Assembly (NCBI GenBank): GCA_040285745.1
Contig: JAUFOR010000002.1
Span: 558,001-622,000 of the forward strand
Origin: Barthelona sp. PCE
Lineage: Eukaryota
Length of the DNA stretch: 64,000 bases
Direction: 5' to 3'
Below, piece by piece: positions 1 to 44,779 of the stretch (position 1 is the first letter of the stretch; each line of letters opens with the position of its first letter). Below the pieces are notes generated by a model that searched no databases, was not told the DNA's origin, and saw nothing but the letters and a program-made list of their open reading frames with translations. Made by a program: the position numbers and the translations under genes.

Positions 1-3000
1 AGCATCTAGTTGACAAGAAGCAATACCGAATAGTGGTGTCTCATTCAAGAACTCATCAGTGACTTCATCAACAGAAATAAGAGGAGCATCACGAAGGAAA
101 ACGTTTGTGTAACGAGAAGAAACGCAAACAGCTTTGTAAAAACCAAAATCTATGGATCCATCTAATTGGAAACGGGAACATGGGTTCTCTCCAAGACAAA
201 GATGTAAGTTATGAGCATACAGGAATGCTCGTGCAGCAAAGAATGCTAAATCAGGCTTAATTGAAACAATAAGAAGAACACAGACGAAAAGAGGTAGATC
301 CTTCAACTCATCCGGCATTTCAGCCAGATCAATCCACTCAGCATTGAGCCAGTGGTCAATAAGGCCATCTTCGATTGCATCAAACACTGATGAATCAACC
401 ATATCCTTTAGATAAGTGGTCATCATATCAAAACCATCAGGAGCTTGAAGCAGACTGTGGAAAAGATCAAGCTCCTCTTCTGCGATAAGGTATAAGTTGG
501 TACAGAACTTGAGAGCAAATACCATGCGCTGATGAATTGAAGGAATACGTGTAAACATATTTTCTATAAATGTATTAAGCATTGAAACACGAATAGTTGA
601 ATCAAGAACCACCTTCCCTTCAGGCATCTCTTTGAAAGCATCCAAAATGATCTTATAAACGCCCTTAAGGTTTGGTATAAGATAGAACATCTTAGAACGG
701 TTCATAACATGAACTAAAGCCTTCAAACCACTACCTACAATATGTGCATAATACTTGTATCTGCGAATTACACGGTTCTTAACAGCCAACAGATACGCCT
801 TTGCAAATGCTTGACTATCACGACAATCACTCAGTTTCTTGCACTTCTCGGAGAAAACTGAAAGCGTCTTCTCAAGCATTTCCACGTTAAGCTGGCGTGA
901 TGCACTTACAACATACTGTAATGCCTCACGCTCCAGACGTGTCTCTTCACGAGCCGCATTAAAGATAACTGCAAACAGATTTTGAGCAATACCATACAAA
1001 TCAGGATCATGATGAGAACATAGATCAAAACAGACAACCTCAATCAGACTATCGAGCTCACAGTCCATGTTAATGAATGGGAAATCCGACAAACCACTGC
1101 TTAAAAACGATGTATGAGTCAATGGTTGAACGCATTGAATGATAACCTTGCAGTCTGCAACGAAATCAAAACGATTGTCACCAACCATCAGTCTATATGT
1201 CCTGTTCTTAATGACATGCAGTATATCCAGAATAATTGGTGCCAGTGATATGAGAAGATCAATATCTTTGATGACAGTAACCTTATGTTTGCAAACTGAG
1301 TTTATGAGTGCATCTCGCTGTTCGTTAACAGAAGAATACTTATACAATCCAATGTAATTCACATCAGTAAACAATGAATTAATTAGTTTCTCTGAGAAAT
1401 CAAAGGGATCAAAGATTGAAATCACACGTTCACCATAAAACGTTGAAATGAATGGAGAGAACTCCTCTAATTGAAGCAATAATGGCGACAAAAAAGGTGT
1501 CTCAGTAAAGAAACGGTTAAATAATTCAGCTACTCTTTTTGGTTCTGCTATTTGCTTCATATCCAACTTTTCTGTATTTCGAGTAGTTGAAACCATAGGT
1601 ACTGAAGTAATACTACGCTCAGTGGGTAAGGAACGTTGAGTTTTGCTACCACGACTAGTTGCAATATTGTCTCTTATACCCTCACCATCAAATAACTGAT
1701 CCATCTCCTCTGCAAGATCTATCGACTCCATAACTTCAACTGAATCATCGAATTGGATGCCACCAAGCTTTGTAGTATGCACATGTGTGTAAACTTCTGT
1801 GATAACTTCAAGAGAAAGGGGATACTGAACTTCATTGGGTTGAGGAACAAAAGCATCAAGAATATATTCGCGTATAACTTCGATGTTTAGCTGGAGTGCA
1901 TGCTTGAATGCCTTGTCGGAGTGAATAGCTGCTGAGTCAGATGCGACAATAAGCTGTTTTGACACCAAATCATTAAGACATGAGTGGAATAACTCAACAG
2001 AACTATCAATATCCAAACATGTTATAAGTGGCATCATGGCCACCAAAGCTGCGTGTAATAGATACTCAGGAGTCGTCTGCATACGTTTAGGCTTCTCCTC
2101 TTCAACTGGCTCAATGGAATTAACCATTTTGGCAGGGGTGGCGAATGATGTATCAACAATAAACGGTGTGCTGGGATCTGAGGCTGTTTCGGATAACGAC
2201 GTGGGATCACTCATGGTATTCGGACCAGCAGCAGACCACATACTTGATGGTGTATCCGGTACATCCTTTCGATCCACCTCCGGACAGATGTTACGGAATA
2301 GAGCTAGATAATCAAGCAACTTCTCCAGCAACATTAAGTTGGATCGCGTCTCAGACATCTCGTGATGCATCAAAGCAACATAATGGTAGTTCTTAACGAG
2401 TGCATCTGAGTGCATTTTGAGACGTTGAGTGTTTGATTCAATGGCTTGAGTGTTAGTCTGACTACGGGAATTCATCATATCACGATCACGAGTTGCCTCA
2501 TGATGAGTTAGTAATGCCTTCTCATGATTTTGAGTCATTTGCGCCCATTGAAGTGCACTACGAGCATATCTTCCCAATAATGGACAGAAAGAACGAGTTA
2601 ACATTGGCCCATCAAAATCTAGAGCATCCAACTTAGAAAGCAATTGTTCAATAAGAATGATTGGAAGTGTTGCTCCAAATGACACCAGAGACTCTACAAA
2701 ATGATCTATACGGATAATCATATTACGTAAATCCTTAAAGGCTGCGTTCTGAGAAAACTTACCTTCAACAATTGAAATGATGATACATGATAACTCATCA
2801 AGATGTTGGTTTTCACCTGAAAGCAAAAGCATTTCAAATGAATCTCGCTCGCCCAAATTATGCAATTCAGCGACAACAAGGTTGAACACTTCCTTTGCAT
2901 TGTTGAGCTCTTCTGAACATTCATCAAGTTGACTTTGTGCTCGATTATATTCTGCTTCAGAATTTTTGATATCTGTTTGGAACTTAACACTCTCTTCTTG

Positions 3001-6000
3001 TAAGGCATCCTTCCGTTGATGTTCTTCTCTCAACTTCTTGATATTCTTATCGAGCTCACGCTGTGTCTTCTCCAAAGTCATTGAGTAGTGTGTTAAATCC
3101 CGGTGACAAAGATTCATTGCTGTTTCTATCCAACGATAGTAACTCAACAATCCACGGGTCAGTTGGGTTTTCTCCTCAGTCATTGAGCGGTTGTAAAGTG
3201 CCAAATTAAAGAAGTTCTCAACAGTATGATTGAAGAACTGTTGCAATCCCAACGCATCAAATGTACCTGCCGTCACTGTACCAAAGGCCCATTGAGGCTG
3301 GAAGCTAAGACGGTTAGTATCAGGCATAATGATCTGTGCCTGAATGCGCTCGGTGAGTTTGATAAATGTATTAGCAAAGAAGTGACTGAAATCCTCACGC
3401 TGACGTGAGTTAACAATATGTGCCATCTTCTTAAAGTCCATTAATGATCTATGTAAGATTCTAGACAAACCTTGCTGGGCTACAGGAGAAAGAGACAGAC
3501 GATATTGTCGATCAAGAATGATGATAAGATCTGATACCACTTGCACAAAATCGCTTTTAGAATACCCTTGATGTTGGACAACAACTGTACGAGCGAAAAT
3601 GGGGATAAGTTGCTTCATTGAATTGGATTCAATGAAGAGTGAAGGTGGTATAACATTAACAAATGTTAGATTCTTTGAAACACGTTCCTTAATAAAGTCA
3701 ACGGTGTTCATACCCAGAGGGGTATATCTCTCAGCCCAAGATGTGAGCTCTTCCCTCTGATCATCAGTAAACAACAATGATTGACTGATTAAAGCATTGA
3801 ATTTCGTATCGGGATGGAAGGAATCAAGTAACGCAGCCGTAAGTCGGTTGGAAAACAACGGCTCTTGTCCACATCTTAACCAGAAGAACTGATTCAAAAC
3901 AACAATAGTTGACTTACCGTTGATAAGAACATCCTTAACAATTTCAAACAATTGATTAGTATCACCTAACTCAAGTTTGATGAGATGAAGGCGTTTCTTG
4001 TTGATATTAACAAACATACTGATCACAAATGATAAGAAATTCATTGCATCAAGCGAAATTGGTTTGATGAGAGTTAAGTGAAGATTGGGAGTATTTAATA
4101 CAATGCTCATAGATAATAAGAAAAGCATTTCACTTGGTGCTAAAGAGATTAATTTTTGAGGAGAATACTCATGTAATGCTCTGAACAAACGGAAACGAAG
4201 AAGATCATCGCGGGCTACCAAAACAAAATCACCACAATAAATATCATCATTAATCATCTTCTGATGTGACTGTGACTTGGCATCAAGTTCCATTGCTGTC
4301 TTGATATTAATAACACATAGAGTATCGTAAGAAGGGAGATGTTGAATAATATCACCGGAGTAGAAATGTGTGATTGCCTGTTCAATAAGGTTATTGGCAA
4401 ACATCAGCTCTCGACTAGACTGAAGGCGAGAAAGCCAAATAACCCTCAATAAGAATATGAAGAATGAAGCTAATGATGGGCCGAACATTGCTGGATTAGG
4501 TTTATGATGAACCATAACCGAAGCAAACAACCAAATGTGCTTCTCTGAGAAAGCATATGTTGGTGAAGCAACACTTTGTTTCAAGCCAGTCTTGAACTTA
4601 ACAAGTAAGAACTTAAACACTTCAAACGTTGTTCTAATGATTGAAACATGAGCAGAATCAGTTACACCCCACTTATTAACCAAGAATTGAACAGCTCTGT
4701 CAATTAACATAGCATGGGTAACATGAGGAAAGACTGTTGTGAAGAAACCGTCCAAATGTGAAACGAAACTGTGTAAATCATCACTGATTGGTTTTGAAAT
4801 TGGCATATCAAAATGTCCAATGGCACAGAAACTGGTACGCTCAAACCTAATATTCAAATTATCTTTGGGAAGATTCAAAACGTTGGAATTGGAAACGTTT
4901 TGAATGAGTAAGAGTACATCACTGGTTGCAAACTGAATGTTGTCAAAAATAATCCAGTAATGTTGTTTCTGTGATGCAGGGGCAATAAGATTACGCGACC
5001 AGTGAGGAATAAAGGTGGATAATGCTTGTTGAAGATCATATGCAGTTGTTGAAGGATAAATATCAAATCTGAACCTTAAAACCTCAACGTCTGCCTTTGC
5101 AAAGACTTCATCAATGAGTTTCAATGAATGAATGCGACTATCATAATTCGCAAAGAATAATCGATACGTTTTACCATCTTTGATAGGATGACGTTCTATA
5201 GCATCAGGTTCTGAGAAAAATATCTCAAAAATGTGCTCATACAGCATCTTTTCGTTTGGATGAAGTCCGGGTTCACCAATCTTAATGTAACTTTTCTCAA
5301 GATTATTCATCTCTACACCTTCCAGAATAACCTGATCAGATATGTCACGAGCACTGTCCATCTCACGGGCAGATTTGCGATGAGAACTCTTACGTCCACT
5401 GAGCTTGAGAGAAACATGTCCCATAGAATGCCCAGATCGAGATGTCATCTCCTCATTGACCAACAACGATGCACTAAGTCCTGATACCAACATGTTATCA
5501 ACACCAGTGTTAGCAGCCTGACCTTCAACTGCTATTTCGTACTTTTTAATAAATGAACGAACAGAATTTGAAATAGAGCTCTTGTTCACGCCCATCCTAT
5601 GACCATAGACATACATTAACCAAACAACAGCTTGTAATTTGTTAGGATGATCACGCAACTTATCCAAAAGTGTCCAAATGTTGTGCAAACGAGAGGAAGG
5701 AGGGAGAATGAATGATGTAAAAGGATTATAAAGATGTGATGCCTTTTGAAACATAGAAACTAAACTATTGATACCAACTCCAATTGCATCTGACTTCCCG
5801 AATCGCAATGAGAGATCTGACATTTCAACATGGTTCAACGCTCCAATCATTACACCATCAGAGATTTTTGCACCTTGTGACTCTGTAAAAGTGTAGACTG
5901 GATCCATGAATATGACTTCCTGATTAGCAATGAAGGGATATGAAGGAATATCACGGTCTGGTTCAGGGATCAATCTTGTGTTGATTTTAATACCTGAAAA

Positions 6001-9000
6001 CTTAGTGTGAAGCTTAATGCTATCCGACAAGCGGTTAACGCTGTTGACCGCAACAGGGCTGTGATTGGTGAGAATTGAAACAAATTTGACATTGACTTCA
6101 CAGCGGAAATAAAAACAATTACTAACAGCATAATTAATTGAATCCTTAAATACTGTAAGGAATGTTGTTGGAGCATCACAACAATAAACCACAACCAAAA
6201 CATTTGGTAAATCAACTAAAGTATCAACAAAACCCATTTCACGGACCTCTTCATTGATTGCTGATGCAATTCTGAATGATTCGTTCTTGGCATGAAGGAC
6301 AACTTCACCGTCAGATCCTAATTCGTTACTATTGAGGATCTCATGTTTGATTACTAGCGGGTGTTCATCATTTTGATGATAGTCACTCAGGTAGCGAGAA
6401 TACAATTGAATCACTGAATTACGAACGTCTACAAGACTGGATGTGTATGTGTACAAAACAACCATATCATTAAAGTGCAACTTAGAAGAAAATTTAATCA
6501 TAAAGTTAAGTAGACGGAAATTTTCATACAAATCAGTATTCAGAACCATATTCGTCCAAAAATTGAATCCTGGTTGCATTTTATAATTCTCAATGTTCTG
6601 ATAATATGGCGCAAAGTTCTCAAGAACACTTAATATTGACTTAATGTCAAAGAGTGAATGACGGAAAACATTGTGAGCCAACTGTGTGAAGTTATTCAAT
6701 GAAGCAGCGTCTTCCAAAAATTGGAATAAAACATATGCAAAAACACGCTTAACATACACAAACTGCACATCAGGAGAGCTGGAAGCAACACCTGTGGTTA
6801 CACTACATACGTGTTTAAATAAAGTGATTGTTCCTGCCATAATACGTCGAAGATTGTTACTGTTAAAGAACACAAGGATACCGTAAGCACGCAATAACCA
6901 ATAAATCTGATCCAAAAGAAGTGATACTTGATGAATAAAGCCATAAGTAAAGGGAATCACTTCCAAATATGGATACAAATCAAGTAAAAGATATAACAAA
7001 GAAGAACCACTGTGATTAAAGTGTGTGTCTAAGTTAATTGCTACGTAATCATCCTCTGGTAATACAAAGTTCGGGGTGTCACAACAGAAAACTGTACGAC
7101 AGTCGCTACCGTGAAACAAACTACTTACAAGACCTTGAGCAATTACAGGTAACTTATGGAAGTGCTTAAAACATGCAATGGTACCAGTCTTATACGCAGA
7201 AGGGATAAAAGGTCTGAGACGATCCAAAAATTCATCTAACAATAACTCACCATTCAGATTAGTAAATTCTTGAGCTAATGAAACACAATCAAAGATGTAA
7301 AACGGAGACATGCAGTAAAACAGAAAAGCAATACGCAGCTCTGGTAATATATTAATCATATCACCGTGTAACAGCACAATTCGTTTCCAAGAAAACGTTT
7401 TCCACATCATACGCATGACCTTGAACAAATCAGGAGTGAGAACAGGAGCAATGAGATTGGCAGTAATTGTGTGAGGGTGTTTAAGCTCAACACCATCAAT
7501 CACAATCAGAGAATCGGCCCATTTATAGGAAATTTCATTGATAAAGAACTCACCAGGCTTAATTGCCTCTGCGTTATTGCGAACAGGAGTAATAAGCTTG
7601 TGCTCTGTTGTGAGACTCATATCAACGCTGGATTCAGGAATTACAAAATCTCTTGTCATTGTGCTGGAGAAATCTAATGGACGACATGGAAGATCAGACT
7701 GATACTTACGGTCAAAATCTGAAGGATATCTCATGTCGACAGCAGAAAACTCACCAAGATAGGGAGTGATAATGCGTCGATAATGAGCATAAATACTACC
7801 ATCATCAATAACGTATATTGATGATAATTTAAGCTTGATTTTGTCATATAAAAACTTAATCTTCGCTCTGTACACCTTAGGCTCATCATTTGTTGTTATG
7901 TGCTTGAGATAATGTTGCAAATGGAAACGACACATGTAAATAGGATGGATTATACCATCAAAACTCTCAAGTTTCTCCCAAAAGTCTTCAACAGTCATCA
8001 CTAACATATCTGGATTGATCTTAATAAATTCTTGCCATTCATTTCGCACCCAACGTACAAATGCACTCATGAAACCACCAAAGAATCGTTCAACTGTATC
8101 CATTGGGAATATAGCTTGGGGAGCATCAAATGGAACAAGAATATTAGCCTGATCGATAAGATGAGTAATGTAATCTCCTTCAACCTCAAAACCGTTCGAA
8201 TTCGGACCTAACTGACAGTAAGTATGCTGAATAGCAAAATTCTCGGCAGAGACTCGTGAAAACAGATCTGGATGCACACGAAGTTTTTGAACAAGGATCG
8301 TAGACGTAGCCATCGACATGCTGCTTACATAACCAAGATAGACAGCACGTGAAACCCACTCTGGTTGGAGGTGAGGAACAATCTTTTTAACAAGAGAAAC
8401 ACTGTCGTCGTACAACTGACGTGCTTCTTCAATGATGTTCTGCTCAGCAGAATCCAGTATACAACGGAACTTTTGACACTTTGATTGGAAGTTCAAAAAA
8501 CGCACATGAACATCTGCAATATCTCTGTAAAGCTTATTATTTTCAAGGTTATACTTTGAATACTCGTATGAACAGAAGAATAACGTCTCCCAAATGGCGC
8601 TAGTGTTAAAAAGAATAACAAGCCAACGTCTAATTTGCTGCAACGAGATGGACCATGAACGCATACGACCTGCCAAACGAGAACTGGATAGAGAGAGTGC
8701 TTGGGCAATTGATTCAAGCGAAGAATTCAGTTTTTCAAATATTGGAAGTCTTCGACATACAACCTCACCTTCACATCCTTTCAAAAGCTCTGGGAAATGG
8801 AGCGCTTGTGCCCATGGTGAAGACTTAAATTCAAAATCTGACATAAAACTCAGATCAGAGAAGTAAGGAAGGTTGAACAAAAGCATGTGTTCACGTGTGG
8901 GATCATTGATAAGTAAATGTGGAACACGGTCGGCAAAAGCATCTCTAAACAGACACTTATCACGACAATCAAGTGCAACTGAAGATAAACTTATTTGTTT

Positions 9001-13902: not shown

Positions 13903-14291
13903 AGGGTAAAATTACAGTGTTTTTAAAAAGGTCTTATGCTTATTTGTAAATATTGAGGTATATAACCGGAAAATAATATCTCTAGTGCAGTTTTACGTGC
14001 AAAAATTCAATACAAATATGTTCACTCGTTGAAAACGATGAAAATAGAAAAACACATTTTTACCTGAGATTTCCTACTGAATTCAATAGATTTACTGTAT
14101 GTATGCTTCATGTTTGACCGCAGTTACAAATAACAAAAACTCTTTAAAGGACAAATTGGAAAAATTGAGAAAAAATGTTCCTATATCATTAAACTGCACC
14201 AATACATGATAAACGACTTGAAAACTTGTTTATATCAAGACAAAATGTTTTAAAAAACAAAAATTAAACTTAGGGATTGATGAAATAAACA

Positions 14292-15035: not shown

Positions 15036-15195
15036 GTAATGAGGGTTATATAATCACATACTCTACATTTACTAAGTATAATCTGACTTTTGCGGTAAAT
15101 AATCGTTCCTGTGAACATAGGAACAGTCAAAATATTTAGCTTAAAATTTTGTGTTTGTTTCACAAAAATCTTCATTTTCACTTTGAATAGTTTAT

Positions 15196-17187: not shown

Positions 17188-17384
17188 ACCTTGTGAATTT
17201 AGATTTATTTGTTCTTTTAGAGGTTTCTATTAATTATTTTCCTCATATTAATTTATGTGCTGTAATTTCTGGGTAAAAACCATGCAAAAAGCGTGTTGTG
17301 GATCAATCATTATTTCAGATGACTTGTGTAAATAGAAAACACTGTTTTTTTTTATTTTTCCCTTTTCACTGGTTCTATCCTTTT

Positions 17385-28676: not shown

Positions 28677-28714
28677 TTACACATCAATACTATTGCATTA
28701 ATCTCGATCATTGG

Positions 28715-37700: not shown

Positions 37701-40700
37701 CAGTATTCCCTCTCATCACCAGTCGTTTACTGGGTGATTTGGATTTCAACATATGCAATGAACGTTTCCTACTTGTCAATTACAATCCTTACTATTGTGA
37801 TCATCCAATTGTCAAAGTGCTGAAAGAACGTGAGTTCGCTGTCAAACACTTTACGTATGAGATGCCTGAGTCCATTAGTATCAAGCAGCTTTCGAAAGAG
37901 ATCAGTGACTTACTGGAGCGTTGGAAACTCAGTGTAGTCAAACCTCTGGATATTAATGAGCGCATCGTCTTTACAGTAAGTCATATGGAGCGTGCGACAC
38001 GTAAATCATTGGATTTTATCAACAGTTTGTGCACAAACAAGAAATTCTTTGAGATGAATTCATCAATTAACGTTACTTTTGAACAAACATTCTTTGTTTT
38101 AACGGTAGATTGTTTTAATCATTCGTATACACATCATTCTAATGATATATCAAACCTCCCAACGAAGTTTTCTGGTTATTTCCCTATTGATTGCCGTCTG
38201 ATCGAGGTCCCGAATCGCAAAGACTTTGAAGTCGATCAGTTGGCGAACATGCTCAACATTACGCATAAGGAACCTGAATTCGAGTATCTAATGGTTGTTG
38301 TTGATTGTATTCACTACGTGCAGCGTGCACTATCCAAGCATTTATTGTCTGCATTGGGTTCTGAGCAGTTTAATTTCTCAAAAGAGCAGATACCCGATCT
38401 CCTAAAAGCGTTGGCGCAATTCAGACCGAACCCTAAGAAGTTTGGGCTCAGTATCCTCAGCTTCTTAGTCTTTTTGATCAAGGCATTTTGGATTTCACGT
38501 TGCAAGCTTGAGTCAGAATTATCATACGCTGTAGATCTCGTTGATGATGTGATTAAACATTATGTCCCTGCCGCTTTAGTTGTTGAAATGCTCAAGACCA
38601 ACGAGATTTTGTTTGTTCATAAAAACATTATTGATGTTCTTAATAGTTCTTCTTCAACAAAGACCCTATTCCATAACGAAGAAGTATTCGTTGGTGAATT
38701 CTATCTTGTCACAGATGTTGATCTCTACCGTCACCGTTCATTCCGCTTCCTATCAATTACTGATATGGATAACATACAGGCATTCCCAATGATTGCACTT
38801 CAACAAGTTACTATTGCTACAATGATAACATTCATTGACCATCAACACATTTCATTCATCAATGGCAGTGGTATTGATAAGTTCTCTATCCTCTCTAATT
38901 TCGTTAAGTATGTCTTTGTCGCGTTAGAGGGTGTGAAGCGTCCACAAGATTATACGGTGGAGTTTATCAAGATCGAGCTTGAACATATGTTGAATATTGA
39001 TGAATTGATTGTGCGAATTCTAAAGAAAATCATATTATCAAATGAGCGTTTGATATTACTGATCCCTAGTGATGTTTTGATTCAGCTACTGGACTATCAA
39101 GATGAAATGATTCATGCCTTCCTGTCACTAAGAGATCTATGTGACGGTTCCCATAATTATAACCGAATTTTCTTCAAGAACCATAAACTCAGCCATGAGT
39201 TCAGGGAAGAAGTTGATTTGTATCTTGATAACCATGGTGGGCATAAATTTTTCCTCAAAGCTCTTAAAAATATCAAACTGATATTTGGGCTTCATCCTCA
39301 AATGCTTGTTGATGACCGAATGCATGATATTCTAAAGCCATTTATTTCAACAAAGTTTACTATTTGTTCAACCAACTATGTTAATGATGATTTTGTTGTT
39401 AGCGCACAAGATCGTTTCATTCAACTCACTCTTCAGCATAAAAAGACTATCGAACGTGAGCTCATGGTTAAACAGCAGCACGAAGAAGAAAAGATACGGA
39501 AAAATTTCTTCAAGGGTGAAGTCAAGAAGAAACAGCATATGACTTTGGATCTCCGTAAAGTTTCAAGTGTATTGTCTACTTCTGAACGTGATTCCCTCAG
39601 TTACCACCTTGCTCCAATGTATGCTCGTTTTTCTGAGTATTTCTGCGTATTTGGTAAGCCATCCCTAAAGAAGGGTATTTCCATAATTCCAGAGTATGAT
39701 TACCGCTTCTGTATTCCGTTTATCGATTATCAACACCATGAACACTTTTATGGGCGGTATATTGAAGATGTTTTTAATATGATCTTGATGATGCGCAGAT
39801 TCTTTTCTAAGCGTTTGAATATAAGTAACATCTTGAATTCTTTCCTAGAATGGTGTCGAAATCTTCTATCAAAGAGTAGCCACCACCGTAATGAGCTCAA
39901 CACTAAGTTACAGTCACTCAATAACGAGGCTCATAACATCTTAACATCATTCGTAAAAGAAAAAGCACAACAAGACCAGCTCATAAAGAAAGATGAACAA
40001 CTGTCTGGTGCTGTCGGTGACTTACAGAAAAAGGCTGAAGAGGAACAAGGAAAATATGAATTCCGTGCTGCTTCATTCCACCGTGCTGCTTCAAAGTTCA
40101 AGAACATACCCCCAATCATCAACGATCTGGTTTCGTATCAGAAGCACCAGAAGAATGTGAGCTCAACAAAGCGTTCCGCCAAGTACAACATGATCGCCAC
40201 AGCATTCCGTCACATGATGCTCATGAACCAGTTCAACCCTACTATGGACATGATCATTTTTTGTTTCATGATGCTCATTGGCGAGGGACAAATTCATGAT
40301 GATATGCGTTCGATTTTTGACAAATTCAAGGGTTATATCACAAACCTTGATGATCTTAAAACGATTTTGAGCGATTTTGATATTCAACGTGTTAAACTCG
40401 ACGTTTATCTTTTTGTGAGGAAGTCCTTCAATGAACTAGTGTTTGGACCCGATGTAGAGCTCAATGTCATAATTACTGGTATTTATGAATGGGTACAATC
40501 ATTTATTGATATCAGAGATGTATTGGTAGAAGTGGAGATGTTGCGAAAGAAGTCAGATGATGCTCAGCGCGAGTTTAAAATGGGTGTTTCGAAAGCAAAA
40601 CACGCAAGTGATTTTGTTATTTCATCAACCAGTCGAATTGATCATCTGCAAGGACGTTTTGCTGAGATTACTTCAGACAAATCGAGCCTCACGTCAGAAA

Positions 40701-43700
40701 TTGATAATCATCAGCTTTATACCGAGAGTGTACGCAAACTCAGCGTGTTGCTTGGTAGTATTTCCATGAAACTGTCAGCCGAAGCACATGGTAACCAAAA
40801 GAATAGCCATTTGCGTGTGGTAAGTGCAAGTCCTATGCTTAATAAGACGAAGAGTAATAACAAACGTCAGTCATTCTCAAACTTTGGTGAAATTGGAACT
40901 CCCAAGGCAACTACTCCAAACAATAAGCACTATAACACTCCCAATCCTCTTGAAACTCCCATGAAATTAATAGAAAGGAAGGATTCAGAATCAAGCGCGC
41001 GTTCTTTGATCAACGTTACTCAGTATGATCGGTCAGAGTTAGAACCCCTTGCTTTGTCAGCACTCCTTTCTTCGTTATGGATCCTGGTACCTAGTCTAAA
41101 CCCGAACTTTCACATTTCATTTGCGCGTGAAACGATTGAAGATCTCAGTAACCGTGGTCTCATGAGTCAGTGCAACGTCACAGATGAGTTTGTGAATGAT
41201 CTGATCAGCTCAATCACAAACATCGTCAACCAAGAGATGCGTGAGGAGATTTCAAACTATCGACCTCTTTCTGATGTGTATCACATTGAGCTTGAGGATT
41301 TACAAGACTATATTGATGCAAACGCACTCATGACTAACACGACTGCAGATATCAAGGTCACTGTTCTTGAAGAAGAGGGTGAGTTTGACAGTGATTTTGA
41401 GGAATCATTCAATGGTTTGGATAAAGTCATCGAGGACATTGATATTAGCAACTCTGATAGTGTTGAATGCAAGTCTGATGCCAGCATGGAAGAACGCTCC
41501 ATGTCAATGTCGCATCGATCCATACCTTCCACAGTAATCAAGGAAAAGAGCAAGGTCTCACTCACCTCTGAATCATCAACTCTCTCCTTTGGTTTTTCGC
41601 TTAGCAATCTTGATATACCCAATGGAATCGCTGCTGTACAGAACCCAATCGAAACAATTCTCGAGTGTGAAATAGAAGAAAGGATGTCACAGTGGAACAC
41701 AGTCACAATGAGCGATGACGTCTTTGCATCATCTATTGTTACATACATTGACACACATCGTGTTTCAATGTTCTATGATCCTATGAAGGTTTTGGACAAA
41801 TATTTCCAGTTCTGCTTTGAAAAGACAAGTACTATCAGTATTTATGATCTCACAAAGGAACGCATCATTGAAGGATTGCGAAAGGGTGAACATATTCATG
41901 TACTATCAGTTAATCCTGAGACTGAAATTCCAGCTTCCACTATTCCTCTCATTCGTAAGATTTCACAACCGGGCAACTTCTTTGAGGCTGGAACCGAATC
42001 TTTCGTCATCCCTCTCAGTTTCCATCTGACTTTCAGACTTGATGTCCCGGTTTCGAGTCCAAAGTTAGCCATGTCTCCTTTAGCATTCCTGCCAGCTGTA
42101 TCTCTTACGTACTCGACTCAGTTCATATTTGATCATTTGAGATATGAACTCATCAAAGCAGCTGACGAAAAGGTCTTCAAATTACTTATTACACTCCGAC
42201 AGTACGTTGAGTTCACGGAGCTTAAGATTGAAGATATATCTAAACGTATAACTGCCTTGCTTTCATCAACACCGCGCAACATTGCCAAAATTGTTGAAAA
42301 TGATAGCATCAATTCGTTAGATGTACTACTTAAAGAACTCTCACATACGCAATCCGTCAAGATATCAAGCAGACAAATGATTCAAAGTATTGAAAATAAC
42401 GTTTTCGATGTTTTCAGTGATTTTTGTTCAACTATCGCTGATATAATCAGTTTTGCCCAAACTTTCGGTGAATTTTGTGGTATCAAATCACTTAATCTCG
42501 AATTACCATTCATTATTGAGAGATCCCTTGCAATACTTGAAGATCCCTCCCGCTCAATTGAGCTTATTGAAAGTATTGTGCGAGAAATCGCTTTTAGCAT
42601 TCCCTATTACAGTGATCGTTTCTTGCTTACAATGTTCCTGTGCATTCGCACCAAGTTCACAGATACAATGATCATCACTGCATACCATGATTTACTAACT
42701 GCGGAGGATGGTTTTAGTGTCATCCGTAACTCATTTCCAAACGTTTTCTCAGTCGATTTCTTTGCAAATATTCAGGCAAATCAGGAATCTTTGCAGAACT
42801 GGGTTAACAGCCCAGATCCGTTCAACACTCCCATATCCTTTGCTCCGAACATTGAACCGATTCATCGTGCTCTTCTATTGATGGCTATCAACAGATCTGG
42901 TTTCTTTGAGACCTTTATTCGAATCTGTGAACCGACAATTTTCCGAAATCTCATCAAGCCGATCTTGTGCAACAGCAATGATTTTATTGTTAACGGTGTT
43001 CAACCAAAGGCAGGTTTGGATATTTACTGCTATCTTCATGAAGAATTCCATTTCTTACCAAAAGAATTGGTTACACTTAAATGCGTTGATGGCTTCAATG
43101 ATGATTGGCTTAAACACGATATGGTTCGAATCGTTGACTACAGTGATAACTACAGTGAGTTAGTTAAATTCTTACTTAAGAAAAGACCTGAGCAGAAGGT
43201 ATACTTGTTTGTGTTTGATGAACAGCTCAATAAGTTGCCTAATTCTATTTTACGTAGAGCCAGCTTTGCCAATTCTTTCTCTCATGTGAAAACTAAAGCA
43301 TCATACTCTTACCTAGAAGCACCCATGGTGTACTTTTCGATTGTACAGTATCTTTTGCTGACGATTTATGAGAAGGAAAAGCCAATAGTCGGTAAGCATC
43401 GTCAATCATCGGACTGGAACACCATTAACGCTCTGATCTTAGTGCATAGCTACATGGATTTCGTAAGCTATTCAGGTGCATCGTTTGCTGTGCATCGAAT
43501 GCTTCGCCGTATCATCAAATATTGCTGTCATTCCGGTCTTGAAGGCGATGAACTGATTAACGGTTTGTTGGGCAAGCACTTTAATAATGGAAATAGCCAG
43601 TATAACTCAATTGATGGAAACTATATTCTTCTGTTAAAGACATTCCGTATCCAACTGCTGAAATTACACAATTTCACTGATTTGATCAGGTTGACTGATC

Positions 43701-44779
43701 TAGACGATCTGTGCCTTGACATCTTGCATATTTTCTTTAAGCTTGGTATGTTGGGACGGTACGATCCAATCACCAATATGTCGATCACAAAGGGTGTTGG
43801 TGAAAGTGAACAGCGACTTTCATTCATGTCCACGCCCACCAACGGTCTAACTCTATTCCCGGACAAGCTGCAAAAGATCACAGACACGCTATTACAGGCA
43901 GTGTCACATGATCTTCCACTAAAGAGCGATTCACCACTGTATATGGACATGTCTCCACAATCCACGATGATTTTAACACATGTGAAGCTGTTACAACGGC
44001 TTAAGAGCTCAATTCAAGAGGATTGCAACTTCATTATTACGACTTTACACGGTGAACTGTCTGGATCATCGTTAGTTTTCAAGACTCTTGCTCTCATGCT
44101 CATCAACGAGTTTATTCCTTATTCTTGGGCTTCCATCGCATATCCTTACTCTCAAGTACTGGGAAACCCTTCAGATAAGTATCCTCTTGCTTTGCTGAAG
44201 AAGGTTCCTATTTTTGAGTTCGCACGATGTATTGAGGCTCAATTCAAGTCTACACACATGCTTCTCACCAAGCTCCGCAAGAGCGCACTTAAGTTGGCGG
44301 ACATTTTCAACTCACATGTGTTCTATTGTCCTATCTTCCCGGCTTTCCATTACATTATCCAAACAACTGCACTGTATGCAGCAATGGAGAAAAAGTTCGA
44401 TAACTATTCAATCGTTGTTCATCCCAGTGATTTGGACATTGAATTTGATGCATTTGTATCCAAGGGAGTGTGTTCGAAGAGTATAATCAAGTGTTCCATG
44501 TTCCCAGTTCAGCATGCTCGCTTCCTTAACTATGAGAATAAGGATGAGCGCGCTATTGTTCAGTCCTTTGATAACATTGATTACGTTGAAAATGCAACGG
44601 TGCGTGTTGTTGAAACAAGTATCGCAAGACGTTCAGGATGGGTATCTTCATCGATGGGCGTGCTTGGTTACTATTTACCAAAATTCCTTGATCGCATTTA
44701 TCTCGGTGGTTTTTCTGTTGGTCATGAAGACATTAGTCTCATAGAAAACATCGTTATTGGTGACTTTAAGGTATTTTAA
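28715..44779 (+). CDS. Divergent dynein heavy chain-like protein (5354 aa), AAA nucleotide motifs degenerate
   Basis: DHC_N1-like (SDEVNWWENRVESL, AKSNSKFL, PYYGTEEHLDLLL), DHC_N2-like (LKPLNEDYFITYHWRHL, CPRLGFVG), AAA1-like (VPVLYPDLIDC...LVGAGCAFSDE...VLVVNC), AAA3-like (YVPTTEH), AAA4-like (HISFINGSGIDK), stalk with IYEWVQSF, AAA5-like (QWNTVTMSDD...RVSMFYDP). Confidence 0.85.
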   Translation: MLSNLLLERNPDARDNFTELFRNKFATVLGRSAADKMFEDDLFINNLRNFALDGARIGLFISILRTGGFRNTTITFYFYNDIKEALDNFESNFEMVFLLRLSTGFAISTFNPHMFIHELVHFQSGVVTSLFKAFSPPKQGKGGNILEKALSDYISSCYALMPSVSELPLLDVLEHNRGNNALFISIGKLWILLLRDTISTKRNITYLSDEVNWWENRVESLTKLLKNLKTTDVNHILKNGESIEPRLVAEIRALIKSVSDSLVIAKSNSKFLNVGLLYFQDLESNTDFSKTVYFLRAVFEVIDQIITKSPYYGTEEHLDLLLSSVVSNVISHVRKYIDSENNLCIDRFINEKNEFIADSLDFFKDHAYDYSCKCRMSLVVCREMKKLFMDYRSQQDDEEHEGNIWSAVQTISCFKELDFCIDRCMDMYEVFLITADVNLLHCISFPLIVTKEPVEQQRKTAFDADEASVILHRVPDTYVEFLLSFFVELKEIILDNYDEEKYKSKYKNLFEIERSQWSKCFFTFSQKIQMLEINLTPCIDYFLGSVMYLGTKLELLSFCRPFVQNPLLQCMSRAVRKHLLLTLHDSFSYSCFLYNQIKLIIPGVSQSAIKLPSISILFDHRNTIANVKSWDLLASDSKRKTFSTVLSKRNIVSSSGSFMGELGEDDESYQHYCDIFDFLYSMYNLVEKFIYELENIGVSRLVEVSAVTEDDTVLEDPPELEELLHLDPCSSKIVISVSLLQRLFNQQIDFLVSIRTVIIEKVMAFVESVVEDFEFKWTDISMFLSSSLLLEGRVPGQYLINENLSLQHVMKVVGELLRRLECSYINFDDKNVLDVVYRGLSKRILRIPKAFLVFKVVYSSLHFSLTAYASVISKLTLTMKKLLHQDLAKAENEFQTAVTSLTWKTHASFSHCKVLSTLVKFLRKKSGALLNVFVTIEDFFKSLQKQRIQILPDESSVYLFLKKNNSIHNKIEEQIEVFNETLRKELLVAYHSLAIGDHDPLWLQFLESVSTSVTSHIHDLIISELDLFRRVVFEETDFLIIGRTSLLGDRIVTIPSYNQRISSSTSILQQLLSHPRAPLLDFRNEKAISLDFLVTFHIHSLLRLLAIINFPDLNSLNDDQELKLLNTPRQSTGKNTTEYNMDEKPHVSEVLKFLCNDKQINIICKDLIDYVRELSFEMNTNITDTFAEFVTIINSSDRSLFSSDFDTAYATLNMDERSELTSIDELLTMLPAFNSARASITSIEKVSERVNSIQQLFKLGFIVLKTDDVIHALKTRLSRLSVNLKVKVKKTVRIFFDFLNNVIENYFFDFNQHYRILSNVGISVELTMDIVEKPMKILELFRDEVKNIEVILSSSTKFIAFLSNTELFSADSEMIVKLKDKTLLMLDRLGTCTDLCNDMFPMVQKLSTSLQSSIYTRLEEFNEVVSEYQGVLVQKIPFGSVVEFKDVPAVRKNCKEALANIESFSKTFLHKTKRFQRIIDYLKNTHKLSHFESNLENLDTIKLTISEFKAFWKTVNDTADTIEFYRTAMFKDVDLNELESTCNRLLLSVEHLENVRFYCENIPNFFVWTEEIRVLLSVFPYLKPLNEDYFITYHWRHLSNLVEMELDIKREFPILELSVRILRSVEISEALAHISHEAKLESGTLKDIATLENQWFFTKFQLSTCNLTYSKYSPLGKLENAHKLPNLTNDDFKMNGNIEEEQEEDLSASPLLSNITFDHKEDATQVFKHFYLTGISSYCDFEYHESPFFNTHLLNIFSDGLVAAANNLPLFKQLEDAFTILNKTALQTTPRMMNSLKQWKERLSAIREVIRRLFVLSFKMDATIALLALSNPIKEAEVNNEKIVEVFEVLEPIFVNDVLNDYYELLRALARCVSVLLVLDNDSMLRHLARVEDKCHKFITNVVPTAFGYEVNNCPRLGFVGVSHICVFGIILMKVIVRREGLIADGNMSQLNTPSTVNSAGSVGSETSYFSRLTGERLALDWIISAAFPSCSGVKIRHDHIVGMLEAYSPYVLKLSPPLSLHVTSFSSVLNTLESIMNLSVSGLYERAAVFERQILESNTLDAEEFITTLSELPMYVARTLFESVLHHISITKPAKYAEFVVDCKSILAKADDIRFEIANREYEYSKFFLPHQISAGVIDPFFVRSVMEGVTMSMAFNEKKKASENTSAENPSSKHEEGYYEGYSGASRDYDHHKYELGGISELGGISELGGISELGDISEMGGISEGAIKSRENSVREILAMEVNDDVLADLKSNEHLVVSIPFIYDFTTAQMTANDEGLKCTFSSQFINSKAVPVLYPDLIDCLQSIISCLNERMAMALVGAGCAFSDEIITAFSGYLMQQVLVVNCVNLTSNLNSLELFEVGLNFRFTAAKVSKATIILTNYETLHQAHRNIIHKLWMSSMVSLLIISNQVGYKEVPLCTKALVLKRDFGIYGTFLYTNFLSILQFQEYTFISGLAYLLSATLNRILSIGRQIGWKAIFRRKSLRRLLAGAKFLYHRVTKGKTMNDDEKFQTFRDCSAFILFRMIKENALPHTSHSYTNSVNSAIEFPGFAYSVLMLLGSNFSEYQKIKFGDNYDVYRDSRVNIECVDTSIVSHIFMYESLRYQYDNFVICGSEHGPYSVFKNLLQAIIDYSSSRYGKRAYLKYIILTPSVFSTFSDFREHAIAMILDLLRVFSLDIADMEKKPRLTIFLGIAGAITTSLSDFLVELRINLIQIYRPMFPDLSLPKFYCFLNYDTSQTININRNMYFIEPYRQLDQLAVQSKSFQQTTSWHDLSAVQDWGFLLFNDYYVPTTEHSMSYAIHRGNFPQISASLGGSSASDALVCLMAKFIEQKPDAYPSIFLFFFGLESRIDYMFRLYNSFSPPQAHALQILIWSVYQALYIGLRSDYRNSLNSFLRHSIAAYLANKTTSGSQFFSLGSGIFTNRSGASGKQVGSTARFSMGGGSTVRSGQTSGRSSARSFDRIGDMIVSSLYKYMAFDVDSGDEECLRLSPTAVFPLITSRLLGDLDFNICNERFLLVNYNPYYCDHPIVKVLKEREFAVKHFTYEMPESISIKQLSKEISDLLERWKLSVVKPLDINERIVFTVSHMERATRKSLDFINSLCTNKKFFEMNSSINVTFEQTFFVLTVDCFNHSYTHHSNDISNLPTKFSGYFPIDCRLIEVPNRKDFEVDQLANMLNITHKEPEFEYLMVVVDCIHYVQRALSKHLLSALGSEQFNFSKEQIPDLLKALAQFRPNPKKFGLSILSFLVFLIKAFWISRCKLESELSYAVDLVDDVIKHYVPAALVVEMLKTNEILFVHKNIIDVLNSSSSTKTLFHNEEVFVGEFYLVTDVDLYRHRSFRFLSITDMDNIQAFPMIALQQVTIATMITFIDHQHISFINGSGIDKFSILSNFVKYVFVALEGVKRPQDYTVEFIKIELEHMLNIDELIVRILKKIILSNERLILLIPSDVLIQLLDYQDEMIHAFLSLRDLCDGSHNYNRIFFKNHKLSHEFREEVDLYLDNHGGHKFFLKALKNIKLIFGLHPQMLVDDRMHDILKPFISTKFTICSTNYVNDDFVVSAQDRFIQLTLQHKKTIERELMVKQQHEEEKIRKNFFKGEVKKKQHMTLDLRKVSSVLSTSERDSLSYHLAPMYARFSEYFCVFGKPSLKKGISIIPEYDYRFCIPFIDYQHHEHFYGRYIEDVFNMILMMRRFFSKRLNISNILNSFLEWCRNLLSKSSHHRNELNTKLQSLNNEAHNILTSFVKEKAQQDQLIKKDEQLSGAVGDLQKKAEEEQGKYEFRAASFHRAASKFKNIPPIINDLVSYQKHQKNVSSTKRSAKYNMIATAFRHMMLMNQFNPTMDMIIFCFMMLIGEGQIHDDMRSIFDKFKGYITNLDDLKTILSDFDIQRVKLDVYLFVRKSFNELVFGPDVELNVIITGIYEWVQSFIDIRDVLVEVEMLRKKSDDAQREFKMGVSKAKHASDFVISSTSRIDHLQGRFAEITSDKSSLTSEIDNHQLYTESVRKLSVLLGSISMKLSAEAHGNQKNSHLRVVSASPMLNKTKSNNKRQSFSNFGEIGTPKATTPNNKHYNTPNPLETPMKLIERKDSESSARSLINVTQYDRSELEPLALSALLSSLWILVPSLNPNFHISFARETIEDLSNRGLMSQCNVTDEFVNDLISSITNIVNQEMREEISNYRPLSDVYHIELEDLQDYIDANALMTNTTADIKVTVLEEEGEFDSDFEESFNGLDKVIEDIDISNSDSVECKSDASMEERSMSMSHRSIPSTVIKEKSKVSLTSESSTLSFGFSLSNLDIPNGIAAVQNPIETILECEIEERMSQWNTVTMSDDVFASSIVTYIDTHRVSMFYDPMKVLDKYFQFCFEKTSTISIYDLTKERIIEGLRKGEHIHVLSVNPETEIPASTIPLIRKISQPGNFFEAGTESFVIPLSFHLTFRLDVPVSSPKLAMSPLAFLPAVSLTYSTQFIFDHLRYELIKAADEKVFKLLITLRQYVEFTELKIEDISKRITALLSSTPRNIAKIVENDSINSLDVLLKELSHTQSVKISSRQMIQSIENNVFDVFSDFCSTIADIISFAQTFGEFCGIKSLNLELPFIIERSLAILEDPSRSIELIESIVREIAFSIPYYSDRFLLTMFLCIRTKFTDTMIITAYHDLLTAEDGFSVIRNSFPNVFSVDFFANIQANQESLQNWVNSPDPFNTPISFAPNIEPIHRALLLMAINRSGFFETFIRICEPTIFRNLIKPILCNSNDFIVNGVQPKAGLDIYCYLHEEFHFLPKELVTLKCVDGFNDDWLKHDMVRIVDYSDNYSELVKFLLKKRPEQKVYLFVFDEQLNKLPNSILRRASFANSFSHVKTKASYSYLEAPMVYFSIVQYLLLTIYEKEKPIVGKHRQSSDWNTINALILVHSYMDFVSYSGASFAVHRMLRRIIKYCCHSGLEGDELINGLLGKHFNNGNSQYNSIDGNYILLLKTFRIQLLKLHNFTDLIRLTDLDDLCLDILHIFFKLGMLGRYDPITNMSITKGVGESEQRLSFMSTPTNGLTLFPDKLQKITDTLLQAVSHDLPLKSDSPLYMDMSPQSTMILTHVKLLQRLKSSIQEDCNFIITTLHGELSGSSLVFKTLALMLINEFIPYSWASIAYPYSQVLGNPSDKYPLALLKKVPIFEFARCIEAQFKSTHMLLTKLRKSALKLADIFNSHVFYCPIFPAFHYIIQTTALYAAMEKKFDNYSIVVHPSDLDIEFDAFVSKGVCSKSIIKCSMFPVQHARFLNYENKDERAIVQSFDNIDYVENATVRVVETSIARRSGWVSSSMGVLGYYLPKFLDRIYLGGFSVGHEDISLIENIVIGDFKVF
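35303..35392 (+). repeat. Five tandem 18-bp units encoding ELGGIS-type repeats
   Basis: gagcttggtggtatttct x2 followed by three diverged copies, inside the dynein-like CDS. Confidence 0.9.

Follow-up and report, generated by a model that had tools for sequence, protein, structure and literature searches.

Two divergent dynein heavy chain relatives without detectable P-loops, probable pseudo-dyneins of Barthelona sp. PCE

Non-motile and orphan heavy chains

An ATP-driven ring is the defining feature of dynein, and the dynein tail, with its DHC_N1 domain, is the part used for heavy-chain association and docking. To our knowledge non-motile heavy chains (DNAHX and possibly DNHD1) have been recognized recently, in animals only, and with nucleotide sites that are partly intact. 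DNAHX is a non-motile subfamily of an animal clade, a duplicate of the outer-arm alpha chain that is reported absent from protists, and it has been proposed as an inhibitory or packaging partner that pairs with another heavy chain (PMC11785096). Its AAA1 has a T to V change in Walker A, with Walker B present and ATP still bound, and an insert in the AAA4 small domain locks the pre-powerstroke state (PMC11785096). DNHD1 is an aberrant heavy chain that carries disordered inserts, and its AAA1 is poorly conserved and without the catalytic Walker B residues (PMC11785096); a survey of orphan heavy chains places it in Kollmar class 11, as an animal orphan earlier labelled a ‘ghost gene’ (PMC5100056). 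The survey also reports 75 unclassified orphan heavy chains, diplomonad, parabasalid and apicomplexan ones among them, argues that they are bona fide genes, and notes that its analysis did not extend to ATP-hydrolysis sites (PMC5100056). A literature search on inactive or divergent dynein-like heavy chains (“pseudo-dynein”) yielded no paper under such names.

We describe here two genes, P0001 and P0002, from a 64,000-nucleotide stretch of the Barthelona sp. PCE genome (contig JAUFOR010000002.1, positions 558,001 to 622,000), the whole of which was analysed and is called the window below. The initial annotation had taken DNHD1 as the nearest precedent for this pair; it is no longer the only one, and DNAHX is closer in concept. 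Like DNAHX (5272 aa), P0002 (5354 aa) is full-length and unusually long, with many disordered inserts, a degenerate AAA1 and a kept tail. Unlike DNAHX, which we compare by description rather than by sequence, P0001 and P0002 lack any Walker A, have the Walker B acids replaced and a motor invisible to Pfam, comprise two apparently dead paralogues, and would be of independent origin. DNHD1, also compared by description only, differs from these protist genes in being an animal gene on which ciliogenesis depends. The protist orphan heavy chains, set beside our pair by description and not by sequence, likewise have diverged motors, and their tails align to known classes (PMC5100056).

Reading frames, paralogy and database searches

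P0001 occupies positions 1..13902 of the minus strand, with its start codon at 13902 and 4634 aa in the window; its C-terminus lies beyond window position 1, and comparison with P0002 puts the part past the edge at roughly the last 550–700 aa. P0002 (28715..44779, plus strand) is a complete dynein-heavy-chain-like ORF of 5354 aa. Both are giant, intronless and real genes, since their sense frames contain no internal stop (0 in 4634 and in 5354 codons), against 214–570 stops in each of the other five frames, where the longest open stretch is at most 180 codons, and since their codon usage is native (correlation with five neighbour genes r = 0.92 for P0001 and 0.89 for P0002; shifted-frame control 0.43 and 0.48). 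The two ORFs first called from sequence are thereby borne out in coordinates, open sense frames and codon usage. Genetic code table 6 was considered and rejected: reading through TAA/TAG upstream adds only 51 and 94 codons, and the table is also unneeded, the standard code leaving both frames without internal stop. An 18-bp tandem repeat of 5.2 copies, with GGISEL units, lies at 35302..35395 (plus) in an insert of P0002 before AAA1. Scans of the window for tRNAs and Rfam families gave no match.

The two proteins are collinear paralogues of about 20% identity by BLASTP. Their HSPs pair residues 206–435, 783–1917, 2152–2433 and 2756–3733 of P0001 with 208–432, 831–2006, 2295–2568 and 2871–3879 of P0002, at 19–24% identity and with E down to 9e-29; collinearity spans about 4000 aa. 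Phylogeny with outer-arm, I1 and other heavy chains had been suggested as a check. In a tail tree with 34 canonical chains P0001 and P0002 group together as sisters, with branch lengths of 2.05 and 2.23 substitutions per site, and the pair falls outside every sampled group, including outer-arm and I1; the branches are long enough for long-branch attraction to be possible, so that the pair cannot be assigned to a class. Divergence between the two is saturated. The frames are clearly kept open by selection, because they remain open and collinear despite more than 2 substitutions per site, and for the same reason both genes are presumably functional. It is most improbable that the two are ‘ghost genes’ left without function by old duplications and now under neutral drift. 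Such remnants would account for the extreme divergence, the low-complexity inserts and the orthologue that our searches did not find; however, the stop-free frames run for 13.9 kb and 16 kb in a setting where other frames hold hundreds of stops, codon usage is native, and collinearity over some 4000 aa at this distance is incompatible with neutral decay.

A search with the P0002 tail against 1.84 billion representative proteins gave only 5 matches, all weak and all DHC_N1-bearing dynein fragments, and the DHC_N1 tail was the sole part of P0002 matched in that library. Among 2987 candidates from a homologue search with P0002 residues 1–5000, none reached E ≤ 1e-3; a metagenome scan with the alignment of the pair over AAA3 to stalk gave 254 pattern matches, of which 0 were confirmed. 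Phmmer and hmmsearch against PDB sequences, run with P0001, with P0002 residues 2001–5354 and with pair profiles A2 and A4, found no dynein. Neither an orthologue nor any other specific relative of either gene was found in the protein-library, homologue and metagenome searches, and searches of the protein collection gave no version of P0001 or P0002 and no protein spanning residues 1–1200 of P0002. An exact look-up there likewise missed P0002, although it did find neighbouring genes from the same record.

Tail, linker, stalk and C-terminal domain

The DHC_N1 tail is significant in both proteins by Pfam (PF08385, cut-off 28.3 bits), as the initial annotation had anticipated: it covers residues 195–543 of P0001 (12274..13320, minus; E 1.5e-17, 63.9 bits) and 190–568 of P0002 (29282..30418, plus; E 2.6e-26, 92.8 bits). 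We also built a custom HMM from 24 canonical heavy chains and scored it against 22 shuffled or reversed sequences as controls. It gave 43.2 and 69.7 for the two tails, and full-sequence scores of 132 and 110, where no control exceeded -4.5; its matches run collinearly through tail, distal tail/linker, stalk and C-terminus. By these profiles the tails are of dynein ancestry. The nearest sequence matches of the pair, weak as they are, are axonemal heavy chains of the two-headed outer-arm and I1/f types.

The distal tail and the start of the linker follow in both. In P0001 they take up residues 792–988 and 1136–1634 (9001..11529, minus; HMM positions 675–1398), where the custom HMM scores 28.1 and 36.3 and the best of the 22 controls -2.6; in P0002 a single match of score 59.7 covers residues 852–1660 (31268..33694, plus; HMM positions 687–1401). 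Pfam DHC_N2 gave no match at E ≤ 10, the custom HMM carrying the linker signal to positions 1398–1401. A further linker segment of P0002 (residues 1794–1897; with the NCPRLGFVG that follows, 34094..34477, plus) scores 29.9 by hhalign, against at most 23 for shuffles, and 37 of its 77 best pair-HMM matches, placed on 99 canonical heavy chains, fall in the matching canonical bin. The claim that the FPRFYF block has been replaced similarly in the two proteins agrees with these alignments: NCPRLGFVG (residues 1913–1921 of P0002, plus) occupies the canonical FPRFYF place, and RAVYLGYVS (residues 1852–1860 of P0001; 8323..8349, minus) is placed at the equivalent position through the paralogue alignment.

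The stalk of P0001 (residues 3571–3866; 2305..3192, minus) is predicted as an antiparallel coiled coil with a helical tip, and that of P0002, with the predicted microtubule-binding-domain (MTBD) region, covers residues 3734–4000 (39914..40714, plus). The custom HMM scores them 17.7 and 12.4, against at most -2.6 for controls. For P0002, hhalign gives the stalk/MTBD a probability of 57–66%, E 5e-5 to 1e-4 and a score of 41.5 against at most 21.8 for shuffles, and 53 of 84 best pair-HMM matches lie in the right bins. The AF2 model of the P0001 stalk is a hairpin of two helices, 17–133 and 213–313 (117 and 101 residues), with pLDDT > 90. Foldseek places it beside dynein stalks: of its nine matches at E ≤ 1e-3, eight come from dynein entries or are axoneme-entry chains as long as a heavy chain. 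VIA-align scores dynein stalks and generic coiled-coil hairpins equally, hairpin geometry alone being unspecific. Taken with the profile matches, the model indicates an antiparallel coiled-coil stalk with a putative microtubule-binding tip in both proteins.

An insert rich in TP/SP had been reported directly after the stalk, and it recurs on counting: a stretch of 91 aa has 4 (P0001) or 5 (P0002) [ST]P, where the average over the protein is about 0.5 per 90 aa. In P0001 it runs between the stalk end and the presumed AAA5 start (residues 3879–3935; 2098..2268, minus) and is predicted to be disordered in the AF2 model; in P0002 it has the same place (residues 4037–4090; 40823..40984, plus). We speculate that this loop, common to both, may be a phosphoregulatory site.

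A C-terminal-domain match, including PYSWASIAYPY, was found in P0002 by Pfam Dynein_C, the custom HMM and hhalign (residues 5078–5150; 43946..44164, plus). The Pfam match (E 1.3e-3, 18.5 bits) is under the cut-off of 25.7; hhalign aligns 55 columns at 31% identity, P..W...AYP among them, with a score of 28.1 against at most 22.5 for shuffles. Dynein_C was assessed for P0002 alone, the corresponding part of P0001 lying outside the window. The top four hhalign matches (linker, AAA3, stalk/MTBD and C-terminus) are collinear. Together these matches support the derivation of both P0001 and P0002 from dynein heavy chains.

The AAA region, its nucleotide sites and the proposed role

Between linker and stalk the signal is much fainter. 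The domain order first proposed, namely tail (DHC_N1), linker (DHC_N2), AAA1-4, stalk and AAA5, stands for the tail by Pfam; DHC_N2, AAA_6, AAA_5, AAA_7, AAA_8, MT and AAA_9 gave no Pfam match at E ≤ 10 in either protein, so the profile checks suggested for DHC_N2, AAA_6, MT and AAA_9 failed. Module HMMs for AAA1-AAA4 did not rise above 25 shuffles each, pair-HMMs for AAA1 and AAA2 were without positional signal on the 99 canonical chains, and hhalign scores for AAA2-AAA5 lay inside the shuffled range; the AAA3 pair-HMM showed a weak pile-up (17 of 59 best matches at the right place). Nor did the structure prediction suggested for the ring give a ring model: AF2 of P0001 residues 2080–3279 (AAA1-AAA3; a 2-row alignment) had a mean pLDDT of 30.4 and is unusable. 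In the ESM Atlas all 10 of 10 neighbours of the middle regions of both proteins are dynein motor clusters (scores 0.91 and 0.94; 200 and 210 of 256 features), those of the linker-stalk region being AAA_7/AAA_8/DYN_lid clusters, with a P0001 recognition value (2165) under the 2300 mark. We infer the DHC_N2, AAA1-4 and AAA5 assignments from collinear anchors, spacing and embedding similarity.

A different reading of the same stretch is that the tail alone, perhaps with the stalk, is dynein-derived, and that the 1500–1800 aa from linker to stalk are a replaced or collapsed helical scaffold with no AAA+ ring. The profile methods that missed AAA1, AAA2 and AAA4 and the unusable AF2 model are in its favour; yet the order of the anchors and the lengths between them fit a full heavy chain, AAA1 motif remnants stand at exact spacing, weak in-register AAA3 matches arise independently from P0001 and P0002, and the embedding neighbours are dynein motor clusters. 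On this evidence we consider such a scaffold unlikely.

Canonical heavy chains have GPAGTGKT and CFDEFNR in 99 of 99 cases, and 1–4 strict Walker A motifs per chain. The pattern [AG]xxxxGK[ST] occurs zero times in P0001 (4634 aa) and P0002 (5354 aa), and there is no G..G.G-type P-loop in them either. Shuffles of the two proteins also lack any P-loop in 84–92% of cases; since most random sequences of this size are without one, the argument from P-loop loss depends on the homology being real. At AAA1 of P0001 the presumed Walker A remnant is GDMINILP (residues 2180–2187; 7342..7365, minus), with Leu/Pro at the Lys/Thr places, and hmmalign puts CFKHFHK (residues 2244–2250; 7153..7173, minus) at the place of CFDEFNR, by a local and weak match (score 3.6–4.3) in which the Walker B Asp-Glu becomes Lys-His. 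In P0002 the Walker A remnant would be GAGCAFSD (residues 2323–2330; 35681..35704, plus), with Ser/Asp at the Lys/Thr places; its register comes from a 7-column hhalign match of residues 2343–2349 with 1935–1941 of P0008, with which hmmalign and spacing agree. Around these remnants the Pro-23-Gly-25-(N/D)-Cys spacing is ungapped as in canonical rows, and the Glu at +8 is kept. ILTNYETL (residues 2381–2388 of P0002; 35855..35878, plus) is presumed to be the Walker B remnant from the alignment of the initial annotation, the tools leaving it unplaced. At AAA3 the Walker A place is probably taken by NYNPYYCD in P0002 (residues 3022–3029; 37778..37801, plus), whose register follows an hhalign match of 3032–3087 with P0008 2562–2618 that scores not above shuffles, and, through the paralogue alignment, by NYDSRIHS in P0001 (residues 2919–2926; 5125..5148, minus), which has an in-register match of 2930–2987 with 2563–2621.

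Both AAA1 motifs said to be eroded are indeed absent from P0001 and P0002. The ATPase-inactive reading built on that erosion holds in that the AAA1 Walker residues are lost and the frames selected, and the loss appears broader than described, the P-loop being gone at every site; the sequences thus support a “motor-dead” reading extended to all nucleotide sites. We consider it very unlikely that these are instead working motors, the host's ordinary dyneins, whose nucleotide sites fast evolution has moved or made unrecognisable. The host is indeed long-branched; but the Walker A Lys-Ser/Thr is gone everywhere and at AAA1, where the canonical spacing is exactly kept, has given way to Leu/Pro or Ser/Asp, the canonical chains that keep both motifs unchanged come from very diverse eukaryotes, and other enzymes in the window retain strong family signatures. 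The Pfam matches of these neighbours (TTLL 8.7e-80, kinase 2.6e-17, phosphatase 6e-33) make the loss of signature specific to P0001 and P0002. The phosphatase, PP4/PP6-like, is 52–54% identical to its best non-self matches, in keeping with a fast-evolving, long-branch organism. With canonical two-headed axonemal chains (outer arm, I1/f) the pair shares domain order, spacing and the DHC_N1 tail, unlike them in lacking Walker A and in its branch lengths, which exceed 2 substitutions per site.

The most probable reading is that P0001 and P0002 are full-length dynein relatives without P-loops, static “pseudo-dyneins” whose role is structural or regulatory rather than motor. They would be old paralogues from a dynein heavy chain, with tails most like the two-headed axonemal type, and both would keep the heavy-chain layout at near-canonical spacing (DHC_N1 tail, linker, an AAA1-AAA4 region of about 1500–1800 aa, stalk and post-stalk region), P0002 additionally keeping the C-terminal domain. 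Dynein-like ATP binding and hydrolysis would be impossible, and with them stepping. Most likely the tails build the proteins into a dynein-like complex on a microtubule structure, either as a pair or together with active heavy chains, where the frozen ring and stalk may form a static arm acting as cross-link, spacer or brake; alternatively the frozen arm could have the inhibitory or packaging function suggested for DNAHX.

Should the latter be their chief role, the two would be non-motile chains of a chaperone- or packaging-like kind, keeping active heavy chains paired in an inhibited, phi-like state while they are transported. The DHC_N1 tail is the best-kept part, and in DNAHX there is a dead chain that pairs with another heavy chain (PMC11785096); however, DNAHX retains ATP binding at AAA1 and a defined, locked state, whereas P0001 and P0002 are without a nucleotide site, and here there are two dead paralogues. 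A chiefly packaging role therefore seems quite unlikely. More specifically, and tentatively, the static pseudo-dyneins may be an independently evolved, protist-specific, nucleotide-free heavy-chain pair that forms a static two-headed microtubule cross-bridge or brake, and this could be the first loss of all four P-loops in a chain whose tail, linker, ring-sized body, stalk and C-terminal domain are still maintained by selection.

If this is true, motor activity was lost on more than one occasion among dyneins, and the pair would be the most extreme natural “apo-dynein” in which to consider the roles of ring, linker and stalk without nucleotide. Dynein inventories based on family models would miss such genes, Pfam here detecting just the tail. 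The dynein architecture would then be reusable as a pure scaffold.

Two giant reading frames and their neighborhood

The window uses the standard genetic code and has very high gene density; none of the genes examined gives any indication of introns. The dynein-heavy-chain-like frame P0001 runs on the minus strand from 13902 down past position 1, with 4634 codons inside the window and its C-terminus outside, and its counterpart P0002 occupies 28715-44779 on the plus strand (5354 codons). Both sense frames are free of internal stops; the other five frames of the same DNA hold 214-570 stops each, with open stretches of at most 180 codons, and the lengths of P0001 and P0002 are far beyond chance. 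Their codon usage correlates with that of five neighboring genes at r = 0.92 and 0.89, versus 0.43 and 0.48 in a shifted frame. The two giant ORFs of the initial annotation are therefore real, and both reading frames have been maintained long-term.

The two genes are divergently oriented, 14.8 kb apart, with at least seven ORFs between them. Five of these match Pfam families: thiamin pyrophosphokinase, a tubulin-tyrosine-ligase-like (TTLL) enzyme (17298-19466, plus; Pfam TTL, 8.7e-80), a protein kinase, a B-box protein and a PP4/PP6-like phosphatase (24954-25847, plus). Another encodes a putative membrane protein whose sole Pfam match lies under the curated cut-off, and a 595-aa ORF has no Pfam family match. 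The TTLL gene would be in keeping with modified, stable microtubules in this organism, though it is no proof of them; its enzyme may have a bearing on how microtubules are modified in structures shared with P0001 and P0002. The TTLL and kinase genes overlap by 4 bp at their convergent ends (19463-19466), the divergent starts of the 595-aa ORF and P0002 are 38 bp apart (28677-28714), and 29 bp (44780-44808) separate P0002 from the next, convergent gene; such short spacers and overlap indicate a very compact genome.

The gene at 44809-51384 (minus), where GC (0.45-0.46) is above that of the rest of the window, encodes a coiled-coil protein of 2191 aa that has numerous weak matches to coiled-coil Pfam families. 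Opposite it, a 1344-aa ORF (46484-50518, plus) is open, probably as a by-product of the repetitive codon make-up of the coiled-coil gene. Three ORFs lie in a 3.2-kb segment between the copies of a perfect inverted repeat of about 1.1 kb (53300-54394 and 57628-58721), whose 661- and 438-nt arms, each 100% complementary, meet with a one-base offset. An intact 317-aa ORF (57718-58671, plus) is present in the right copy, and in the left copy this ORF is split into 128 aa and 228 aa, as expected from a 1-nt indel; the repeat stems from recent duplication or gene conversion, unless it is an artefact of assembly. A small family of ~220-aa proteins (53350-54036, minus; 55542-56216, minus; 57718-58671, plus), with hydrophobic, signal-peptide-like N-termini and common blocks such as DP.YF.I.SV, matches no Pfam family, and possibly represents lineage-specific secreted or surface proteins.

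Dynein ancestry and paralogy

Pfam DHC_N1 is found in both tails well over its curated cut-off (P0001, E 1.5e-17; P0002, E 2.6e-26). Searched in full with HMMER against 1.84 billion representatives, P0002 residues 1-1200 matched only five proteins (E 5e-5 to 4e-4), all canonical heavy-chain fragments with strong DHC_N1. One of these fragments seeded a set of 312 full-length canonical chains (E <= 1e-20); the 120 matches listed are, by source names, of outer-arm and I1/f types. A custom HMM from 24 of these chains, run unfiltered, scored P0001 and P0002 at 110 and 132 bits, and none of 22 shuffled or reversed controls exceeded -4.5. Its domain matches are collinear, covering the tail (HMM 203-431), the distal tail to linker start (675-1401), the stalk (3029-3322; scores 17.7 and 12.4, best control domain -2.6) and, in P0002, a C-terminal segment (4233-4304).

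When the alignment of the pair was compared with the canonical alignment by hhalign, with the canonical chain P0008 as coordinate reference, the first four matches were collinear: linker (P0002 1794-1902 on P0008 1526-1626; score 29.9, shuffles <= 23), AAA3 (3034-3291 on 2565-2819; score inside the shuffled range), stalk and MTBD (3745-3990 on 3190-3423; probability 57%, E 1e-4, score 41.5, shuffles <= 21.8) and C-terminus (5091-5150 on 4383-4437; 31% identity, score 28.1, shuffles <= 22.5). Linker, stalk and C-terminus thus exceed column-shuffled controls. The C-terminal match includes a P..W...AYP motif, whose stricter form P..W...[AS][YF]PS occurs in 44 of 99 canonical chains. Conversely, HMMs of the paralogue pair placed their best matches on these 99 chains in the correct 100-residue bins in 37/77 cases for the linker and 53/84 for the stalk.

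For the middle 2000 residues of each protein, the best ten ESM Atlas rows were all dynein motor clusters (AAA_7, AAA_8, DYN_lid, MT, AAA_9), with neighbor scores of 0.91 and 0.94 and 200 and 210 of 256 features shared; the recognition value for P0001 is under the tool's mark. AlphaFold2 modeled the P0001 stalk (3560-3930) at mean pLDDT 69, as two long helices (model residues 17-133 and 213-313, mostly pLDDT >90) joined by a low-confidence helical tip. Foldseek with this model gave nine PDB matches at E <= 1e-3, eight being dynein entries or heavy-chain-length chains in axoneme entries (among them 8ptk, 9e5c, 5ayh, "entire dynein stalk region", 9y6s and 9fqr) and the ninth MukB. Tail and stalk descend from a dynein heavy chain, and the linker and the C-terminus of P0002 probably do so as well.

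BLASTP between the two proteins gives four significant collinear HSPs at 19-24% identity (E down to 9e-29), pairing P0001 206-435, 783-1917, 2152-2433 and 2756-3733 with P0002 208-432, 831-2006, 2295-2568 and 2871-3879; judged from these alignments, they are paralogues. In a tail-region FastTree with 34 canonical chains they are sisters outside every sampled heavy-chain group, with branch lengths of 2.23 and 2.05 substitutions per site, too long for a safe class assignment.

Two further features noted in the initial annotation hold up. FPRF[YF]F, present in 79/99 canonical chains, is replaced at the matching place by RAVYLGYVS in P0001 and NCPRLGFVG in P0002. Directly past the stalk, from the end of its second helix to an L..AA..S...P segment corresponding to the canonical AAA5 start, both carry an [ST]P-rich stretch (4 and 5 [ST]P in 91 residues, versus ~0.5 per 90 elsewhere), predicted disordered in the P0001 stalk model. 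In P0002, an insert preceding AAA1 also contains an 18-bp tandem repeat (35302-35395, plus; 5.2 copies, 86% matches) that codes for GGISEL units and is likely a length-polymorphic site.

Nucleotide sites and the putative AAA+ ring

P-loops are wholly absent from both proteins: [AG]xxxxGK[ST], G..G.G and G.G..G occur nowhere, and the few relaxed matches sit in low-complexity or unrelated contexts. GPAGTGKT and CFDEFNR are present in 99/99 canonical chains, which carry three strict Walker A motifs in 66 cases, two in 23, four in 9 and one in 1. A short hhalign match (P0002 2343-2349 on P0008 1935-1941) and hmmalign set the AAA1 register; reading without gaps, P0001, P0002 and canonical chains share the Pro of (T/Y)P(L/D), followed 23 residues later by a Gly, and, from that Gly, Glu at +8 and (N/D)-Cys at +25/+26. 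GPAGTGKT is thereby replaced by GDMINILP in P0001 (2180-2187) and GAGCAFSD in P0002 (2323-2330), the Walker A Lys/Thr pair being Leu/Pro and Ser/Asp, respectively. CFKHFHK of P0001 was set on CFDEFNR by hmmalign at a weak score, and ILTNYETL was placed as the P0002 counterpart by eye only, as in the initial annotation. At AAA3, weak in-register matches arise independently from each paralogue directly past the P-loop (P0002 3032-3087 and P0001 2930-2987 on P0008 ~2562-2621), placing NYNPYYCD (P0002) and NYDSRIHS (P0001) at GSAGTGKT; at AAA4, IPSDVLIQ and NQFFWLRC were set at GVGGSGKQ by eye only. The loss is not a genome-wide blur, since the TTLL, kinase and phosphatase genes of the same window match their Pfam families strongly (8.7e-80, 2.6e-17 and 6e-33). 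The proposal of a motor-dead dynein is thus supported, and broadened from AAA1 to every site.

The motor has diverged past family-model detection. Even with the threshold relaxed to E <= 10, Pfam yields no match to DHC_N2, AAA_6, AAA_5, AAA_7, AAA_8, MT or AAA_9, and no dynein emerged from PDB sequences searched with phmmer or with pair profiles. Single-module HMMs for AAA1-AAA4 scored no higher than 25 shuffles each, hhalign scores for AAA2-AAA5 fell inside the shuffled range, and on the 99 canonical chains pair-HMMs of AAA1 and AAA2 had no positional preference and that of AAA3 a weak one (17/59). For P0001 2080-3279 (AAA1-AAA3), AlphaFold2 with a two-row alignment reached pLDDT 30.4, too low for a usable ring model. 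Of the dynein domain order first read from these frames, tail and stalk stand and the linker is probable; the ring we infer, rather than demonstrate, from collinear flanking anchors, canonical spacing, embeddings and local remnants.

Relatives and proposed role

No orthologue was found by a word-seeded protein search with P0002 1-5000, a full HMMER search with its tail or a metagenome scan; the exact P0002 sequence is absent from the protein collection searched, and two neighboring genes are present. The phosphatase is only 52-54% identical to its best non-self matches, a spread over unrelated supergroups that takes in Anaeramoeba, plants, fungi, Gregarina and Cryptosporidium. This marks the host as a long-branch eukaryote, with no sequences from a close relative among those in the collection.

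Heavy chains that are non-motile have been recognized as a category only very recently. According to PMC11785096, DNAHX derives from the outer-arm alpha chain and is confined to animals; it has 5272 aa, with inserts and degenerate AAA1 motifs, is reported absent from protists, and DNHD1 is suggested as analogous. DNAHX retains ATP binding and Walker B and is proposed to form a pair with a second heavy chain (PMC11785096), whereas P0001 and P0002 lack any P-loop. The 75 "orphan" heavy chains of Kollmar (2016; PMC5100056), including diplomonad, parabasalid and Plasmodium sequences, have retained tails and divergent motors and are argued to be real genes; their ATP sites are stated as not analysed. 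In our literature searches, no heavy chain devoid of every P-loop came up. The pair is more extreme than known non-motile chains: it apparently arose independently, neither copy retains a working motor site and every nucleotide site is erased.

P0001 and P0002 are very probably selected, dynein-derived proteins without dynein-type ATP sites; that they also have a static structural or regulatory role is a somewhat less secure, though still favored, statement. They would be unable to run the dynein ATPase cycle. In dyneins, partner chains bind to the tail, which also docks the complex (see also PMC5100056). The tail is the best-kept part of P0001 and P0002, which are for this reason most likely components of a dynein-like particle sitting on a microtubule-based structure, perhaps paired with each other. 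There, a nucleotide-free ring with linker and stalk could act as a fixed arm, serving as cross-link, spacer or brake; alternatively, the two proteins may be inhibitory partners of active chains.
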